DNA from: Escherichia phage KKE7M
DNA: 64,000 nucleotides
Direction: 5' to 3' (one strand)
Sequence record: PQ356295.1
Every line of letters begins with the position of its first letter. Positions within the stretch are counted from its first letter, which is position 1. Position numbers and translations under genes: made by a program. Shown here one piece after another: positions 18,888 through 59,276 of this stretch. Under the pieces are notes generated by a model that saw nothing but the letters and a program-made list of their open reading frames with translations, did no database searches and was not told the origin of the DNA.

Positions 18888-18890
18888 ACA

Positions 18891-18910
18891 AAGGGGCGAA
18901 AGCCCCTTTT
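18891..18910 (+). terminator. rho-independent terminator
   Basis: AAAGGGGC-GAA-AGCCCCTTTT. Confidence 0.6.
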
Positions 18911-18925: not shown

Positions 18926-19678
18926 ATGGGAAATAAAACCGCAAAGGCTCGTCGTCAATCAGCAGCCAATGATGACAAACGTGCCAGTCGTTATGCGGCT
19001 AAAGCAGTAGGAAATGATGATTACCGTCTTGATGAATTTACCCCTATTGGGAATCAAGAAGCTATTGTAAGAAGCATGGTTTGGAATGACTTAACCATTG
19101 TTAATGCCCCAGCAGGAACAGGAAAAACAACAACAGCACTATGGAAAGCATTGCAAATGCTTAAAGCTGGTGACTTCAGAAAGTTGATTTTCCTTAAAAA
19201 CCCGACAGAAGTAGGTGATGATCAAATTGGTTTCTTATCTGGAGATAAGACTGATAAACTAGCAGCACACTATGAATCAACTAAAAGAATTTTCCAACAG
19301 TTTATGACTGCAAATAAATTGGAAAACGATATTGCAAGTGGCAAAATTGAACTTAATATTCCAAACTATGCACTAGGTGCTACGTGGGATAACAGCATTA
19401 TTCTTATTGATGAAGTTCAACTTATGTCACCAAATACAGTAAAACTTCTCCTTGAGCGAGCAGGTCTTAATACACGTATTGTCATTATGGGCGATGTTAA
19501 TCAAACATATGCAATTAAACGAAGAGCTAATGGGTTAGGTGATTTGTTAGATCGTGTTGTTCCTATTAACGAAGAAGGAGAAAGGGAAGCTATTGTAGAT
19601 TTTATTGGTTATGTTGAAATGACAACTGCTGATAACCAACGTTCCCGTTTGTCTCAGTTCATCACGGAAGTATATTAA
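18926..19678 (+). CDS. phoH: PhoH-like ATPase
   Basis: Walker A NAPAGTGKTTTA, Walker B ILIDEVQ. Confidence 0.9.
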   Translation: MGNKTAKARRQSAANDDKRASRYAAKAVGNDDYRLDEFTPIGNQEAIVRSMVWNDLTIVNAPAGTGKTTTALWKALQMLKAGDFRKLIFLKNPTEVGDDQIGFLSGDKTDKLAAHYESTKRIFQQFMTANKLENDIASGKIELNIPNYALGATWDNSIILIDEVQLMSPNTVKLLLERAGLNTRIVIMGDVNQTYAIKRRANGLGDLLDRVVPINEEGEREAIVDFIGYVEMTTADNQRSRLSQFITEVY

Positions 19679-19714
19679 TAATTACAAGGCAAGGATGCCT
19701 ATTATGGAGGTTAA

Positions 19715-20206
19715 ATGACGCTAATTGAGATTGATCGCAATGGTATTGATGAATGCTATCAAGCTGGCTTAGTTAAGCCGAATGAGTTTAGACAGATTTA
19801 TATTGACAAGATTGAAAAAGAAATATCTCTTCGTTTAGAGAACATGACAACTTTGCAAAAAGTTCAGATGTTTTTTAGTTGGTTGAAAGGGGAGGATTGG
19901 CTAACTAAATATTACCAGGAATTATCTGATAGTCAAGAAGGCTTGTTTGAGTGTATAATAAATGTAGCTGGGTCTAATTCAGAATTACTCCTGATCGATG
20001 AAGAAGATTGTAAACTTCTTTTTCTTAGCAGCATCTTTCACAAGAAATCTATGTTAGTAAGAAATTGCAGTGATTTACTAAATCATCCACTAACAAGAAC
20101 TAATAAAATTCTTGTGGATAAAGAAACACTAAGAGCTATTGATTACCTCCGTAAATATGTAAGCGGTGGTAAAGCAGTCCTTAAAACACTACAGGAGGAA
20201 GTATAA
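19715..20206 (+). CDS. hypothetical protein (163 aa)
   Basis: ORF; stop overlaps next start. Confidence 0.5.
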   Translation: MTLIEIDRNGIDECYQAGLVKPNEFRQIYIDKIEKEISLRLENMTTLQKVQMFFSWLKGEDWLTKYYQELSDSQEGLFECIINVAGSNSELLLIDEEDCKLLFLSSIFHKKSMLVRNCSDLLNHPLTRTNKILVDKETLRAIDYLRKYVSGGKAVLKTLQEEV

Positions 20207-20859
20207 TGACAACAATTATTGCAACACGTAACAAAATTCTGTCTGACGGTAAGGTAACAGTAGGTAGTCGTGTAGACACTTTAAATTTCAAGAAAGTGCG
20301 TAAAATTGGGGACTACCTTGTTGGTGGTGCAGGACGTCTGTCTTCTATCCTGACTTTCTTTTCTTGGTTTGAACAAAACTTACAATGCCAGGCAGCACAA
20401 GAGACAATCCCAGGTTTGGTGATCCAGTCAGATCCCGATAAAGAAGATGAAGAGTTTGTGGCATTGGTTGTTCACCCAGACGGTAAAATTTATATGCACG
20501 AGGGTAATAATCCAACTCGAGCATATCCTTTAACTGAAGATTATTATGCAGTTGGTAGTGGGGCAGATTTTGCTTTAGCAGCTTTAGATGCTGGGGCAAC
20601 CCCGGAAGAAGCGATGGAAGTTGCAAAACTACGAGATGCTTTTTCAGGTGGTGAAACTTTTGTCGAAGAGATCGAAGAACAACTGGAGTTAACAGCGGAA
20701 GATATTCTGAACTTCAGCAAGGAGCAACTAATTAGTATGCTGTTGACTGGTGATCCTGATAGTGATGAAGCTGAAAGTATTTTAGCAGAAATGAAAGAAT
20801 CACAAGAAAAAGTATTGACAGTCTCTGAAAAACTTGATAAAGTATCCTCTGATAATTAA
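20206..20859 (+). CDS. HslV-like Ntn-hydrolase peptidase with acidic C-terminal tail (217 aa)
   Basis: N-terminal MTTII (Thr after Met), GGAGRLSS and YAVGSGADFALAALDAGAT glycine-rich segments like HslV. Confidence 0.45.
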   Translation: MTTIIATRNKILSDGKVTVGSRVDTLNFKKVRKIGDYLVGGAGRLSSILTFFSWFEQNLQCQAAQETIPGLVIQSDPDKEDEEFVALVVHPDGKIYMHEGNNPTRAYPLTEDYYAVGSGADFALAALDAGATPEEAMEVAKLRDAFSGGETFVEEIEEQLELTAEDILNFSKEQLISMLLTGDPDSDEAESILAEMKESQEKVLTVSEKLDKVSSDN

Positions 20860-20868
20860 TCTATCATA

Positions 20869-20888
20869 AACCCCCTCAAGGGGGTTAT
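20869..20888 (+). terminator. stem-loop AACCCCC-TCAA-GGGGGTT
   Basis: Read directly; weak T tract. Confidence 0.4.
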
Positions 20889-26621: not shown

Positions 26622-27035
26622 ATGTACTATAGTGACTATTTTGTAAACCCAACAAAAGAACAACTTCAATCGGCAGTGGATAAGATGCAGATTGTAGTTA
26701 AAGAATGTGAGAAAATAAGAAAACAACTACAAGAAGAAACTGTTGTTGTTAATAAATGGTTTGGTCTTAGAAAGAAGGTTGTTAGTAAACACAATATCAT
26801 CCTTGAAAAAGCAAAAACGACAGGGACTAGTTACGCCTTACAAGGCTTGTTGCTAAATTACATTGATATAGAACAACATTCTCTTCTGCACTGTTGGCTT
26901 CACAGTCCTAGTATTGAGGATCTCTTGTTCTGGTTGTCGTGTGAATCTGTACTTTTAAACGAAAATGAGGCTTACCGTTTAAACTTCTGCCTTAAGGCAG
27001 AGTTACCAGCTAGTGTTAAGGAGAAGAAGCAATAA
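26622..27035 (+). CDS. hypothetical protein (137 aa)
   Basis: ORF with GAGGAG RBS. Confidence 0.5.
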   Translation: MYYSDYFVNPTKEQLQSAVDKMQIVVKECEKIRKQLQEETVVVNKWFGLRKKVVSKHNIILEKAKTTGTSYALQGLLLNYIDIEQHSLLHCWLHSPSIEDLLFWLSCESVLLNENEAYRLNFCLKAELPASVKEKKQ

Positions 27036-28024
27036 TGAAAGTTTTAAGTCTTTTTGATGGTATGTCAGGAGGAATGCTTGCACTAAAAAGCGCAGGTATT
27101 GAAGTAGATAAGTATTATGCCTCAGAATTGGACAAATTTGCCATAGCTGAAAGCCAAGCCAATTTTCCAGATATTATTCAATTAGGTGATGTTACAAAAT
27201 GGAGAGAATGGGATATCCCGTGGGGAGAAATTGATCTTTTGTTAGGTGGTAGCCCGTGCCAAGGCTTCTCTTCTTCTGGTAAGGGTTTGAACTTTCAAGA
27301 TCCGCGATCTAAACTGTTCTTTGAATATGTTGAAATTCTTGAACATATTAAAAAGTTTAACCCTAATGTTAAGTTCATGCTTGAAAACGTTAAGATGAAG
27401 GTGGAGTGGGAAAACGTGATCACAAGTTACTTAGGTGTTGATCCCGTATTCATTAACTCCGCAGATTTCACGGCACAGAATAGGCAACGTTTATACTGGT
27501 GCAATTGGGAAATAAAACCTTGGGATATTACCAATGAAGTGTTGCAAGATATCATTGAAGATGATAGTATCGTAGACAGAGATAAGGCTTATTGCATAGA
27601 TGCAAATTATGCCAAAGGTGGTAATATAGAACAGTATTTTGAAAAGAGTCGCAGACAACTGGTTTTTTATCCGGCAGCAATATATGGGCGTAGAATTAAT
27701 GAAAATGGCAAACGTAGTACATCTAAAACTGATCGTTTGGTACATTGTTTGGAAGTTCAGGACAGTGAAAAAACTCGTTGCCTCACGACTGTGCCTAAAG
27801 ACGTACTACTAGCTTACATTCCACCTGGAAGATATCTAGATGCCTTTGAAAAATTGAGTGAAGGCGTACATTATAGAAAGTTAACGGTTAAAGAGTGTTG
27901 CCGCTTACAAGGTGTTCCAGATGATTACTTTAAAGTGAGTAGTAACACACAAGCATATAAGATGTTAGGCAATGGTTGGACTATACCTGTCATTGCGCAT
28001 ATTCTTAAATCTATGGAGGAATAA
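27035..28024 (+). CDS. DNA cytosine-5 methyltransferase
   Basis: LSLFDGMSGG (motif I), GGSPCQGFS (PCQ motif IV), ENV (motif VI), C-terminal LGNGWTIPVI. Confidence 0.85.
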   Translation: MKVLSLFDGMSGGMLALKSAGIEVDKYYASELDKFAIAESQANFPDIIQLGDVTKWREWDIPWGEIDLLLGGSPCQGFSSSGKGLNFQDPRSKLFFEYVEILEHIKKFNPNVKFMLENVKMKVEWENVITSYLGVDPVFINSADFTAQNRQRLYWCNWEIKPWDITNEVLQDIIEDDSIVDRDKAYCIDANYAKGGNIEQYFEKSRRQLVFYPAAIYGRRINENGKRSTSKTDRLVHCLEVQDSEKTRCLTTVPKDVLLAYIPPGRYLDAFEKLSEGVHYRKLTVKECCRLQGVPDDYFKVSSNTQAYKMLGNGWTIPVIAHILKSMEE

Positions 28025-28813: not shown

Positions 28814-29347
28814 ATGGGTTTTGATGACATGTTATTATATGAGGAGGCTTGTGTGAAAGAAGCTATGGCTTTACCAGTTTTATCTATTGATATTACAACA
28901 GTAGACACTTTTTCAGATTGTGAAACGTGTGGATCGTATTCATCTATTGTACATGAAGTCAGTGGGGATTTAGGCACTTACGAAGATGGAGATTATGCAA
29001 GTTGTTTAGGTGATAATCGAGATGGTGAAGTGGCGAATGTTGCAAACTGGATCGCTTCTAAGTTAAAAGAAAGAAATCGTCCGTTCCCTAATCTTCTTAC
29101 ACCAGAATCTATGCTTAAAGCTGAACAAGAGATGGATGACTATGGTTATAAAGTAGATTATGACTATAATGATCCTACTTATAAAAAATTGAGTGACAAG
29201 TATTGGGAACTAGCTAATGCTTATGATAAATACTACTCTACAGAAAACATTGTTAAATTATTTTTAGATTTTGGAGTAGAAATTAATTGGGATTTCGAAG
29301 AGGAAGAGCGTTACGATGCATCTTATTGGGAGGACGAGGGTGAATGA
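28814..29347 (+). CDS. hypothetical acidic protein (177 aa)
   Basis: ATG 28814 after GGAGGA. Confidence 0.5.
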   Translation: MGFDDMLLYEEACVKEAMALPVLSIDITTVDTFSDCETCGSYSSIVHEVSGDLGTYEDGDYASCLGDNRDGEVANVANWIASKLKERNRPFPNLLTPESMLKAEQEMDDYGYKVDYDYNDPTYKKLSDKYWELANAYDKYYSTENIVKLFLDFGVEINWDFEEEERYDASYWEDEGE

Positions 29348-30084
29348 TAGAACGAAAACCCTTACCAGATAGAGATTACTTGTTATCAAGGTTTAGTGTG
29401 GAGAATGGTCGTCTTGTTTGGAAACCTAAACCTTCTACAACAAAAGAGAACAAAAGGTGGAATAGCAGATACGCAGGGAAGATTGCAGGGACTATTGATA
29501 AAGTTGGTTACTCTCATGTCAAAATAGATGGTATTGTATATTTGGAGCACAGAATTTGTTTTAAAATGTATCATAATTACTGTCCAGATGTTATAGACCA
29601 TGACGACGGCAATAAACTTAATAATGCGGAAAGTAATTTATTGGATAGTAACTATTTATTAAATAATAACAATAGACACGTAGATGGGTTAGAAGGTATT
29701 TATGAAAAGGATGGTGTTTTTCTTTGGGTTATAAACTACAACCAAGAAACTTTCTCTGTTTCAGGTTTCAAAACTAAAGAGGAAGCTACTGTAGCTAGAG
29801 CTTTAGCAAAACAAGAAATTTTGAAAGGATCTTATATCAAAAAAGAAAAGAAGCGTATAGATAACACTTCAGGATTAAGTTGTGTGTTTGTGGCAACAAG
29901 AGAGAGAACATTCTTTTTCAAGTTTGTGTTTGACAAGACCGCTTATTGCAAATATGGTTTCAACGATCCAGAGAGATGTGCTATAGCTCTGGAGAAGTTA
30001 AGGTTGAAGGTGATGAAAGAAAAATATAAACCTGCAAATAAAAGCATTTGCGAAAAATATAAGGAGGAGATTTATGCCGCGTAG
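29344..30084 (+). CDS. HNH endonuclease-like protein (HNH_3-type, 246 aa)
   Basis: GYSHVKIDG...LEHRI...VIDHDDGNKLNNAESNL pattern. Confidence 0.5.
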   Translation: MIERKPLPDRDYLLSRFSVENGRLVWKPKPSTTKENKRWNSRYAGKIAGTIDKVGYSHVKIDGIVYLEHRICFKMYHNYCPDVIDHDDGNKLNNAESNLLDSNYLLNNNNRHVDGLEGIYEKDGVFLWVINYNQETFSVSGFKTKEEATVARALAKQEILKGSYIKKEKKRIDNTSGLSCVFVATRERTFFFKFVFDKTAYCKYGFNDPERCAIALEKLRLKVMKEKYKPANKSICEKYKEEIYAA

Positions 30085-30889
30085 AGTCATATTCATAACT
30101 GGCGCAGGACTATCTGTGGATAGCGGTATCCCAGCTTTTAGAACAGATACTTCTTCAGGGGAGGCGTTATGGTCTTCTTATGATCTTTCTGAGGTCTGTG
30201 ACATTTTCAACTTCCGTGATGGTTATCAGCAAGAACAAGGTGTTCTTGATGCTATGGGTGGTTTAGATGCGGAAGGATATAACCTCTACCGTAAAACTCA
30301 CGACTTTTACAATAAACGTCGCGTGGAATTAGCGAAAGTTGACCCGAATCCAGCACATCTTCAGATTGGAGAATGGTTCAAAAAATATGGCCCAGAACGA
30401 ATTCTTAACATTACTACTAACGTGGATGACCTCCTTGAACGAGCAGGAGTAAATAGGGAAGAAGTGCTACATGTGCACGGTTTTCTTCCTGAAATTACTT
30501 TTCAAAGAAAAGCTGGACAACCTACAATTGTAAAAGATGTTGGTTATCAAGCCATAGATGTAGATGACTACCATTATGTAAAACCTAATGTAATTTTCTT
30601 TGGAGAAGCTGCTCCACTTTACACAGATATGTATCATATTCTTGATACACTAACGGCTCAAGATATGGTTGTAGTAGTAGGATGTTCAAACCAAGTTATC
30701 AATTTTAATTGGGAATTATTCCCTGCACTTAATATGGGTACAAAAATGATCGTTGTTAACCCAGGAATTAATTACGAAGAAACTCTTCTTTACGAAGATA
30801 GAGGAGTCTTTGTTTATCGAGAAAAGGCCGCAGATGCTTTTAGCAATCCTGCTTTCATAAAAATGATAGAAGATCATTTGACTAAATAA
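30074..30889 (+). CDS. SIR2-family (sirtuin-like) protein lacking zinc-binding cysteines
   Basis: GAGLSVDSGIPAFR, NPAH, TTNVDDLLERAG, HVHG, VIFFGE, VVVGCS, VVNPGIN match sirtuin motifs; no CxxC...CxxC module. Confidence 0.75.
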   Translation: MPRRVIFITGAGLSVDSGIPAFRTDTSSGEALWSSYDLSEVCDIFNFRDGYQQEQGVLDAMGGLDAEGYNLYRKTHDFYNKRRVELAKVDPNPAHLQIGEWFKKYGPERILNITTNVDDLLERAGVNREEVLHVHGFLPEITFQRKAGQPTIVKDVGYQAIDVDDYHYVKPNVIFFGEAAPLYTDMYHILDTLTAQDMVVVVGCSNQVINFNWELFPALNMGTKMIVVNPGINYEETLLYEDRGVFVYREKAADAFSNPAFIKMIEDHLTK

Positions 30890-57084: not shown

Positions 57085-58074
57085 TTACATCTCCTTACTG
57101 TATACTAATTTGCCACCATATTGTGTAATAATTTTTTGAAGATTTTCCAAATCAGAAACACTTACTGTTTCTGTATAACCGTCTTTCAACTCTCTTTCCG
57201 TTAAAATACCAGTTTTTAATTTTTTCTTTATAGCTCTTTCAGCAGCCTTACATTGTTTTACTGTGCTAAAATCATATAAACAAATACGCTCCATAGGAAA
57301 CATATTACGGCTATTTTGAATTTTTAATCGTCTATCACTATCTTTAGCTATACCAAACTTAAGAGCAACTATAATATTATCATCCTTAACAATATTAATA
57401 TATAACTGCTGCTGACTATGACCAGCACACATAGGACAACCTCGACCGAGGCTTAATAAATTATGAGCACTCCCTATCTGCTCACCATGCACAAGACAAA
57501 AATATTTAAACTTACCTATAGAAGAGGGTTTGGTAATCCAATCTACCCAGACATACCCTTTCCCTTCTACTTCCTTTTTTACCCTATAGGTGATCTGGTC
57601 TTCTGTATACCGATAGTTCCCACAACGACACGGAATATACCCTCGTTTAAGGTTATCTCCTTCAGAGTAAAATTTACCATCACAAACACCTGCTTGAACA
57701 TATTCATCATGAGAGCAAACAGGACATTCAACCATCCAGATAATATTCCTACATCCTTTACCCCGTGTTCCTGTGTTAGTGAAGATAGTGCCTTCCTTAA
57801 ATTCCCCTGTAGAAAAGAAATCTGCAATATGTTGATCGTCGGACATTGTTTGTGACTTCCTTATATTCTTCCTCCTACATTGTGGACAACCGCTACCACA
57901 TTTAAAACTGTTAATACTTGTAGTATCCCATTTATAACCACAATGGCACAACAAATCAAGTTTTGTGTGGACCCCTTTCCATTGTCCCGTCCATCCTAAG
58001 ATTTGGATTTGCTTACTCTCTGCTATTGGTATACACTCTTCTTTATATTGTTCCCATGATTTTGGTGCTGCCAT
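57085..58074 (-). CDS. T5orf172 (GIY-YIG-like) domain protein with N-terminal zinc-ribbon repeats (329 aa)
   Basis: Repeated CxxC pairs; C-terminal LYINIVKDDNIIVALKFGIAKDSDRRLKIQN resembles T5orf172 domain. Confidence 0.45.
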   Translation of the reverse strand: MAAPKSWEQYKEECIPIAESKQIQILGWTGQWKGVHTKLDLLCHCGYKWDTTSINSFKCGSGCPQCRRKNIRKSQTMSDDQHIADFFSTGEFKEGTIFTNTGTRGKGCRNIIWMVECPVCSHDEYVQAGVCDGKFYSEGDNLKRGYIPCRCGNYRYTEDQITYRVKKEVEGKGYVWVDWITKPSSIGKFKYFCLVHGEQIGSAHNLLSLGRGCPMCAGHSQQQLYINIVKDDNIIVALKFGIAKDSDRRLKIQNSRNMFPMERICLYDFSTVKQCKAAERAIKKKLKTGILTERELKDGYTETVSVSDLENLQKIITQYGGKLVYSKEM

Positions 58075-58148: not shown

Positions 58149-59276
58149 TTAAAACACACTTGCCAAAGTTGCACCATTGGTGATAGTTGGTTCCAGAACA
58201 ATACGGAAAGAATCTTCTGGATCATCACTAAACACAACGATTTTACCGCCTGTGATAAGATCTGCTTTCATTTTTGTCGCATTCAATGGAATTCGAGCAT
58301 CGCCTTCATCATCAAAAACCACGTAAGAGCTATTAGCAAGGGCTTCTTTAGAGTCTGCATCACTTGGAGATGACAAGTACACGTCTAGTGTGCACGAACC
58401 ACCTAAAAAGATTGCAGGTGTAAAGTTATGCCAACTAGATACCCAGCTAACTTTCTGAAGTTTTCCATTAATAACAACGCTGCTGATATCCCATTTATTA
58501 CCACCACCTAAAGAAACGCCCATCATAGAGATGCATTCTTTAAAGGATAAATCAGGGTAGAAATTAAGTTCTTCTACTATACCTTGGATCACATCAAAGG
58601 ACAACTCTAAACTTACATCCCAAAGTCTTTGGAAATTATCAAAGTGTGCTTTGTTATCCAGGTTTTTATCTAAATAGTCAATCATAGTTTCTAGTGAGAT
58701 TTTATCATAATTAAAATTATAAAACACACGACTAGGACGATTTAAAAAGAATTCAGAGATAAAACCACTGTTTTTAGTCAGAATAAACAGTTTATTACCA
58801 CTGCCAGTACCATCTAACAAAGTGAGAAGTGCTTCTTGATCTTGTTTCTTCTCATATACTTTATCAAACTCGTCAAAAATAATCACTGCTTTGTCGGTGA
58901 TCTTGCTAATAAGTTCAATGAAATTAGCATCACTGTAGGCTTGAGTAACCATAATAGTTGGAATACCTTCTTCTACAAGATCACGACTAATGAGTTTGGC
59001 TAACATAGTTTTACCACTACCCTTAGTTCCTGTCAGAAGCAAGCCTGTATTTTTACCTTGTGCACTCCGGCGATGGAATGTACGGATAACGTGATTTGCT
59101 CGTTTTTCTGTTTCACCATACAGAACATCCGGTACACCTGTTAGATTACCACGGCTTAAAAAATAATTGCCAAGGGGATCACGACTAACAGTATAGAATC
59201 CAGGTGGAAGATAGTTAGATTCCACGCCCATATCTTTATTTACACTTACAATATCACCATAAATCGTGTATTTCAT
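58149..59276 (-). CDS. AAA+ / P-loop ATPase (375 aa)
   Basis: Walker A GTKGSGKT, Walker B VIIFDEFD; C-terminal domain unassigned. Confidence 0.6.
   Translation of the reverse strand: MKYTIYGDIVSVNKDMGVESNYLPPGFYTVSRDPLGNYFLSRGNLTGVPDVLYGETEKRANHVIRTFHRRSAQGKNTGLLLTGTKGSGKTMLAKLISRDLVEEGIPTIMVTQAYSDANFIELISKITDKAVIIFDEFDKVYEKKQDQEALLTLLDGTGSGNKLFILTKNSGFISEFFLNRPSRVFYNFNYDKISLETMIDYLDKNLDNKAHFDNFQRLWDVSLELSFDVIQGIVEELNFYPDLSFKECISMMGVSLGGGNKWDISSVVINGKLQKVSWVSSWHNFTPAIFLGGSCTLDVYLSSPSDADSKEALANSSYVVFDDEGDARIPLNATKMKADLITGGKIVVFSDDPEDSFRIVLEPTITNGATLASVF

Follow-up and report, generated by a model that had tools for sequence, protein, structure and literature searches.

A phage-borne proteasome-fold protein of Escherichia phage KKE7M with an intact N-terminal-threonine active site and an acidic C-terminal tail, distinct from HslV proper

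Proteases of the proteasome type have a central part in protein turnover throughout the domains of life. The gene treated here (20206..20859, plus strand) lies in a stretch of 64,000 nucleotides of Escherichia phage KKE7M (sequence record PQ356295.1; "the window" below means this whole stretch) and encodes an HslV-like protein of 217 amino acids (aa), the orthologue of phi92 gp058 (PHROG 1040) and a hydrolase of the proteasome/HslV fold with an N-terminal threonine. Among the closest described systems, HslV (ClpQ; E. coli and T. maritima, PDB 1m4y), the peptidase subunit of bacterial HslUV and a dodecamer of two hexameric rings, holds the C-terminus of HslU by Phe54, Phe57, Gln114, Ala79 and Lys80 (PMC6429459), and its pore entrance is basic (Arg86, Arg89, Lys90), whereas BPH (PDB 5ovs and 5ovu), which has no unfoldase partner, has a pore loop that is highly acidic (PMC5777263). 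A catalogue of proteasome homologs from phages was published in 2021 by Fuchs, Alva and Lupas, who described PPH and RPC as phage-associated group I proteasome homologs without helix H2; PPH have about 140 residues and come from tailed phages, and RPC, which have a C-terminal extension, were reported from Proteobacteria genomes only and not from phages (PMC8665760, Table 1). Connectase (PDB 6zw0 and 8jtu) is likewise a proteasome-fold protein of the N-terminal nucleophile (Ntn) type with a Thr/Ser nucleophile, and shows that the same fold permits non-degradative chemistry.

Compared with HslV, the phage protein has an N-terminal hairpin shorter by four residues and a 62-aa acidic C-terminal extension, and there is no hslU in the phage operon or genome; BPH differs from it in being chromosomal and bacterial, in forming a tetradecamer, in lacking a C-terminal tail and in having Ser1 in some subfamilies. 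We conclude with very high confidence that the phage protein has the proteasome/HslV fold and an intact active site, and with high confidence that it is not a true HslV and belongs to a phage-borne clade distinct from HslV. Our overall reading, to which we give a probability of roughly 0.5, is that it is an accessory threonine peptidase of this phage clade which acts without HslU.

Fold, active site and distance from HslV

A single-chain AlphaFold2 model of the HslV-like protein, built from 25 family sequences, had a mean predicted local distance difference test (pLDDT) score of 83.9, with most of the core above 90. It shows the alpha-beta-beta-alpha Ntn-hydrolase sandwich that is the hallmark of the proteasome/HslV superfamily (MEROPS T1); an earlier note on this DNA, made from the letters alone, had proposed an HslV-like peptidase and named structure prediction among its checks, and the prediction returned this fold. 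The Pfam Proteasome model (PF00227) was passed marginally, with 25.1 bits where the gathering cut-off is 22.4 (E = 1.6e-5) and a best stretch confined to aa 11-63. Solved HslV structures match aa 1-131 with E = 5e-8 to 4e-5, HslV being the top-scoring solved structure, and a BFVD entry, the 131-aa 'Ntn hydrolase' of a Caulobacter phage, can be superposed on the model with a template modelling (TM) score of 0.89.

The catalytic core (aa 1-155; 20206..20670, plus strand; pLDDT >90) holds the invariant columns of two alignments: A1, with E. coli HslV and with Vibrio and Aeromonas phage proteins of 34-36% identity, and A2, in which the HslV-like proteins of metagenomic phage contigs are 41-51% identical. 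The open reading frame (ORF) begins at 20206, the earliest start codon available in it, and its product starts with MTTIIATRNK, so that a threonine follows Met1 directly, as the note had read from the MTTIIA start. This MTTI N-terminus is the same as that of E. coli HslV, and an MTT[I/V] start occurs in 121 of the 145 cluster representatives of the wider family. Besides Thr2 (Thr1 once Met1 is removed), the core contains Asp14, which corresponds to HslV Asp17, Lys30 (Lys33), Gly40 at the place of the oxyanion Gly45, Gly43 (Gly48) and Gly117-Ser118-Gly119 (G123-S124-G125). The glycine-rich segments that had seemed HslV-like do align with HslV, GGAGR (aa 40-44) with GFAGG (45-49) and GSGAD (aa 117-121) with GSGGP (123-127). 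The columns M1, T2, T3, I4, D14, K30, G43, G117, S118, G119, A123, A136 and A140 are invariant in A1. Across the wider clade of 133 sequences, Thr1 and Lys33 are each present in 133 and Asp17 in 132, the three positions of the G-[S/T]-G motif are kept in 133, 131 and 133, and the oxyanion position (G40) is occupied by Gly in 99 sequences and by Ala in 29. Such strict conservation at about 30% overall identity points to selection on catalysis, and a pseudo-enzyme would hardly have retained the catalytic set across the clade. Judged from its sequence, the HslV-like protein would be a catalytically competent N-terminal-threonine peptidase.

The relationship to HslV itself is distant. On the two NCBIfam HslV equivalog models, NF003964 and TIGR03692, the phage protein scored 34 and 31.6 bits, far below the cut-offs of 137 and 157.75, whereas E. 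coli HslV, run as a control, reached 303 and 287.5 bits. A family profile searched against 1.84 billion cluster representatives retrieved 8,062 proteins at E <= 1e-3. The 57 clusters among them that reached E <= 1e-30 constitute the family proper, and their lengths, mostly 180-350 aa, indicate that it carries C-terminal extensions. Below them, the matches grade continuously into many proteins of 137-160 aa. All of the 145 representatives retrieved are closer to the query (mean 56-99 bits) than to E. coli HslV (2.5-9 bits). The proposal of an HslV-like peptidase thus stands for the fold and the catalytic set, and fails if true HslV is meant; the name 'HslV' claims too close a relationship.

By description, the clade would correspond to the PPH group together with C-terminally extended relatives. 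With PPH it shares carriage by tailed phages, membership of group I (HslV/BPH-like) and the lack of both helix H2 and a propeptide, and the many profile matches of 137-160 aa have the size of PPH and are far nearer to the query than to HslV. PPH have about 140 residues, however, whereas the phage protein has 217 with an acidic tail, and it retains a 16-residue loop that is deleted in the short forms. With RPC it has in common the missing H2 and an additional region at the C-terminus without a counterpart among known structures. RPC have nevertheless been reported from Proteobacteria alone, and among 185,579 genomes of bacteria and archaea, a scan met the HslV-like family on a single contig of 425 bp; the scan used narrow peptide patterns, by which distant chromosomal relatives were possibly missed.

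The HslU-binding region, the pore segment and the acidic tail

At the site where HslV has helix H2 and its basic pore cluster, the phage protein carries an acidic Pro/Gly loop (aa 65-84, ETIPGLVIQSDPDKEDEEFV; net charge -6; 20398..20457, plus strand). DSSP assigned the model a helix at aa 45-67, coil at aa 68-83 (ETIPGLVIQSDPDKEDEE) and further helices at 120-128 and 133-143; the coil contains Pro69, Gly70 and Pro77, and HslV has two helices in this segment. On the model, helix H2 would be absent and H1, H3 and H4 kept, as is characteristic of PPH and RPC. The segment from H1 to S5 counts 40 aa in the phage protein, 42 in HslV and 22-30 in the relatives of about 140 aa, a length near that of HslV which suggests that H2 was replaced and not removed in the phage protein, a true deletion being found in the short relatives.

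Of the HslV residues that hold the C-terminus of HslU, Ala79 and Lys80 lie on H2 and fall into the loop of the phage protein, and Phe54, Phe57 and Gln114 have L49, F52 and P108 as their equivalents, at positions that are variable across the family. From the alignment and the monomer model, the signature of the HslU docking pocket appears to be lost, and the idea put forward in the earlier note, that the protein might pair with host HslU, finds no structural support. The eight residues preceding strand S5 read PDKEDEEF (net -4) in the phage protein, whereas E. coli HslV has RTDRMLRK (net +3) there; conservation of the acidic columns at aa 81-83 extends over the superfamily. This acidic segment resembles the acidic pore loop of BPH, although in BPH the loop comes after helix H2 (PMC5777263).

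The long acidic C-terminal tail that had been noticed from the letters is present as an extension without an equivalent in HslV (aa 156-217; 20671..20856, plus strand), with 17 Asp or Glu against 5 Lys or Arg (net -12), in a protein whose overall isoelectric point (pI) is 4.3. Helices are predicted in it at 164-168, 172-181 and 188-215, at the low-to-moderate confidence of the AlphaFold2 model there (pLDDT 54-83). Acidic tails occur in all 18 phage homologs compared in A1, with net charges from -6 to -27. Within the tail, a moderately conserved motif (aa 162-181, LTAEDILNFSKEQLISMLLT; 20689..20748, plus strand) is followed by a polyacidic run; its family consensus is L-T-x-E-x5-S-K-E-E-L-x3-L-F-G, and among 55 long-form representatives T163 is kept in 37, E165 and K172 in 44 each, and G181 in 31. 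The homologs from Vibrio and Aeromonas phages show the motif too. Pfam gave no match on the tails of the query and of the longer homologs, and a resemblance of the motif to a SAP/HeH motif found no support and was dropped.

Mode of action and its alternatives

For an accessory peptidase that acts without HslU, the following mechanism can be proposed. Host methionine aminopeptidase would strip Met1, as the specificity of that enzyme and the maturation of E. coli HslV suggest, and the exposed threonine would serve as nucleophile and general base; Asp14, Lys30, Gly40 and Ser118, as placed by sequence and fold, would complete a classical proteasomal active site. Taking HslV and BPH as a guide, one would expect the subunits to form rings with the active sites inside. 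Action independent of HslU is most likely, in view of the acidic loop in place of H2, the pocket positions that are not conserved and an acidic pore segment like that of BPH. More speculatively, the acidic pore loop and the tail may select or recruit basic and/or unstructured polypeptides, a mode of substrate selection in which our confidence is modest.

An accessory, non-morphogenetic role during the infection phase is suggested by three circumstances. The gene belongs to a co-directional early/middle block of nucleotide metabolism, which comprises the large and small subunits of ribonucleotide reductase, dTDP-rhamnose enzymes, glutaredoxin, lysozyme, PhoH, the gp059-like gene, the HslV-like gene, gp057, a DNA methyltransferase and an invertase; a separate prohead protease is found in the structural module of phage JohannJBalmer, which is 99% identical; and one isolate lacks the catalytic N-terminus. 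The last is phage VEcB (MT932211 / NC_052663; locus L012, MT932211.1 19998-23798), which encodes an in-frame fusion of 267 aa, consisting of PhoH aa 1-115 and HslV-like aa 63-217. Its deletion of 1,122 bp, equivalent to window 19270-20391, has the 8-bp repeat GCAGCACA on both flanks and removes HslV-like aa 1-62 (the catalytic N-terminus), gp059 in its entirety and the C-terminal half of PhoH. The flanking microhomology suggests that the deletion is genuine, and if so, these three parts are dispensable for propagation on the laboratory host, which fits an accessory role. RefSeq names the VEcB fusion 'peptidase HslV family' despite the missing catalytic N-terminus.

Several points weigh against an HslU-independent accessory peptidase. 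The hosts, E. coli, Klebsiella, Vibrio and Aeromonas, are gammaproteobacteria, which generally carry hslVU, so that the distribution of the gene does not exclude the use of HslU. The absence of H2 is taken from a single-chain AlphaFold2 model with a local pLDDT of 74-83, in a segment near to HslV in length, and the mapping of the pore residues differs slightly between A1 and a larger MAFFT alignment, so that only the charge of the segment is robust. The VEcB deletion is possibly specific to one stock or an assembly event, the gene being intact in a second VEcB record (OZ035773). Moreover, BPH, the nearest partner-less analogue, had no activity on model substrates (PMC5777263), and an intact active site is for this reason no guarantee of general peptidase activity. 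In the literature we found neither biochemical data on any member of the clade nor an experimental study of any phage member, just annotation-level mentions and the bioinformatic catalogue of 2021.

Among the alternatives, it is rather unlikely, though conceivable, that the protein is a specific enzyme that processes, ligates or deamidates one target in the manner of connectase, maybe together with the translationally coupled gp059 and with the tail as a docking element. The gp059-like gene (19715..20206, plus strand; 163 aa; PHROG 14834, function unknown) is the directly upstream neighbour in the enterobacterial-phage branch, where it is conserved at that place (phmmer E from 1e-14 to 1e-33), and its product is a possible partner of the HslV-like protein, as far as can be inferred from its position. 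No homologs of gp059 were detected beside the Vibrio and Aeromonas members by BLASTP or with a gp059 profile, however, start/stop overlaps are common throughout the gene block, and the AlphaFold2 model of gp059, though its pLDDT is 94, has a fold that offers no functional clue. The helical insertion between S3 and S4 that defines connectase (PMC8665760) is also absent from the HslV-like protein, whose model has plain strands there.

That the phage hijacks host HslU, with phage dodecamers docking on HslU hexamers and either redirecting degradation or titrating HslU away from host HslV, is in our judgement unlikely. The top score of HslV among solved structures and the MTTI start shared with E. 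coli HslV agree with this explanation, as do the general presence of hslVU in the gammaproteobacterial hosts and the lack of a phage HslU, the only AAA ATPase of the phage not being co-distributed with the HslV-like gene. It is opposed by the wide failure on the equivalog models, by the loop that takes the place of Ala79 and Lys80, by the variable L, F and P at the remaining pocket positions and by the acidity of the segment before S5; in addition, the clade is about as distant from HslV as are other proteasome homologs without a partner.

A bolder form of the HslU-independent reading is a self-sufficient viral 'mini-proteasome', an unfoldase-free ring threonine protease whose acidic loop and tail would capture basic, loosely folded host proteins for destruction early in infection. 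Its targets might include nucleoid-associated and other nucleic-acid-binding proteins or defence effectors, and it might form a three-gene accessory module with gp059 and PhoH; we regard this extension as improbable as it stands.

Pairing with an AAA ATPase of the phage itself, as a two-component ATP-dependent protease, we consider very unlikely. The earlier note had stated that no AAA+ unfoldase gene is adjacent, and none was found within several kb on either side of the HslV-like gene; the statement has to be qualified by a PhoH-like P-loop ATPase two genes upstream and by an AAA ATPase about 37 kb away (58149-59276, minus strand; 375 aa; PF00004, E = 1.5e-9; PHROG 2376; phi92 gp221). No further AAA+ or protease domain was found among the window ORFs of at least 200 aa, and no HslU-, ClpX- or Lon-like gene is annotated in the complete genome of JohannJBalmer. 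The lack of an unfoldase partner holds for the neighbourhood and, barring this one ATPase, for the genome. The ATPase contains a genuine PF00004 domain with Walker A and B motifs and a sequence, 'RPSRVF', that resembles the second region of homology, its nearest solved relatives are domains of p97/Cdc48, which are proteasome partners, and it co-occurs with the HslV-like gene in 106 of 106 Escherichia phage records. Yet the two genes are 37 kb apart on opposite strands, the position of pore loop 1 reads 'VTQAYS' as against 'MWFGES' in Cdc48 D2 and shows no aromatic-hydrophobic-Gly motif, and the C-terminus (...LASVF) is neither HbYX-like nor HslU-like. The ATPase family is also widespread in large myoviruses of Gram-negative and Gram-positive hosts and is common in phages of Enterococcus, Bacillus, Staphylococcus and Lactococcus, genera that are not named among the HslV-like matches, and at most 7 Vibrio phage records have the ATPase as against 12 with the HslV-like gene. 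As an obligate unfoldase partner it was rejected on its distribution and its missing pore-loop motif. In JohannJBalmer it is called an 'FtsH-like protease', and it has no protease domain; its C-terminal region of about 175 aa is of unknown function.

Finally, a scaffold in which catalysis is irrelevant and the acidic tail does the work, for instance as a DNA mimic or decoy, would suit the strong acidity of the protein and the occurrence of the tail throughout the family, but is hardly credible given catalytic residues that are near-invariant across 133 sequences of about 30% identity and relatives of about 140 aa that have no tail at all.

Gene structure, distribution and surrounding genes

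The HslV-like gene is preceded by the Shine-Dalgarno sequence AGGAGG (20193..20198, plus strand), 7 nt 5' of its ATG, and in the phi92 record the corresponding position is annotated as a ribosome-binding site (AGGAG); the ATG shares one base with the stop codon of the upstream ORF (TAATG, 20204-20208). A GC-rich hairpin, CCCCC-TCAA-GGGGG followed by TTATT (20871..20884, without strand assignment), lies 12 nt past the stop codon and possibly acts as a weak terminator or stabilises the RNA; the terminator scan lists it on the minus strand. The number of terminator-like sites in the region, 5 as against 4.9 expected in shuffled sequence, shows no excess, and promoter-like sites were no commoner than in shuffled sequence. 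GC-rich hairpins occur in the short gaps after the lysozyme, PhoH and HslV-like genes (18890-18909, 19687-19700 and 20871-20884), and these three could represent a recurring intergenic RNA element of the phage, not enriched as terminators in a simple scan.

That the gene is phage-encoded, as had been assumed, is borne out by the identity of 99% between the window and genomes of phi92-like Justusliebigvirus; over the region of the gene, identity to the listed phi92-like Escherichia phages (Justusliebigvirus, Stephanstirmvirinae) is 98.4-99.1%, and the HslV-like protein itself is 98.6-100% identical to its orthologues in phi92-like phages. PHROG 1040, 'peptidase HslV family', is matched with E = 8e-62, and public labels include "peptidase HslV family", "putative 20S proteasome", "putative proteasome component" and "ATP-dependent protease subunit HslV", phi92 gp058 having been noted as "putative 20S proteaseome" since its deposition. 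The occurrence of 'HslV without HslU' in phages has already been remarked in genome papers (PMC7823757). The gene is hence not a new find, and it is already known as a correctly annotated member of a catalogued family.

By tblastn the HslV-like gene was found in 166 phage records. Relatives of 70-79% identity occur in other listed phage records of Escherichia, Shigella and Klebsiella, and relatives of 34-41% in myoviruses of Vibrio and Aeromonas; four Shewanella phage records match as well, and the contigs that carry homologs are mostly phage-sized. Five 'Campylobacter phage' records also matched, of which MG065689.1 and MG065650.1 (A110a and B15) encode proteins of 100% and 71% identity in genomes of phi92/phAPEC8 size; probably Campylobacter is a mistaken host label, or these records are contaminants. 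In Aeromonas phage 4L372D, a second, divergent proteasome-type protein of 183 aa (gene 228; locus L003:3432-3983) is encoded directly 5' of the HslV-like gene. It begins with (M)TCIIALRD...AGDKLG, has 'GCG' instead of 'GSG', and matches the family profile with E = 1.7e-5 and, along almost the whole of its length, Pfam Proteasome with E = 0.013. That two paralogs lie side by side is a hint that the particle of this phage may be hetero-oligomeric.

The PhoH-like P-loop ATPase gene (18926..19678, plus strand; Pfam PF02562, E = 1.4e-35), which is not an AAA+ unfoldase, lies two genes upstream of the HslV-like gene, and in most lineages examined (phi92, the Vibrio phages VnaP and 1.193.O, and the loci L009-L011) PhoH is found one or two genes 5' of it. 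A BLASTP comparison of the flanking proteins of phi92-type, Vibrio and Aeromonas phages found PhoH as the only conserved neighbour. The order ribonucleotide reductase, glutaredoxin, lysozyme, PhoH, gp059-like, HslV-like recurs in the metagenomic phage contigs. PADLOC, with its defence models, gave no match.

Two further segments of the window were noted in passing. On the plus strand, 27035-28024, 29344-30084 and 30074-30889 encode a C-5 cytosine DNA methylase (PF00145, E = 1e-43), a protein with an HNH domain and a member of the Sir2 family; the methylase is not among the annotated products in the corresponding part of JohannJBalmer, and the segment may explain a shift of about 3 kb between the window and the JohannJBalmer genome. 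On the minus strand, a gene adjoining that of the AAA ATPase (57085-58074) encodes a protein of 329 aa that combines CapR-homology repeats (PF21817, E = 6e-25) with a T5orf172 (GIY-YIG-like) domain. The protein has a match to PHROG 681, 'endonuclease', and is possibly a homing endonuclease.

For the phage family, the analysis indicates that the name 'HslV' is too strong and leaves the idea of pairing with HslU without structural support. If the clade is an unfoldase-independent protease that selects its substrates by an acidic gate and tail, it would represent a new viral route to remodel the host proteome and, if this holds true, a compact model for proteasome-fold enzymes that work without ATPase partners.

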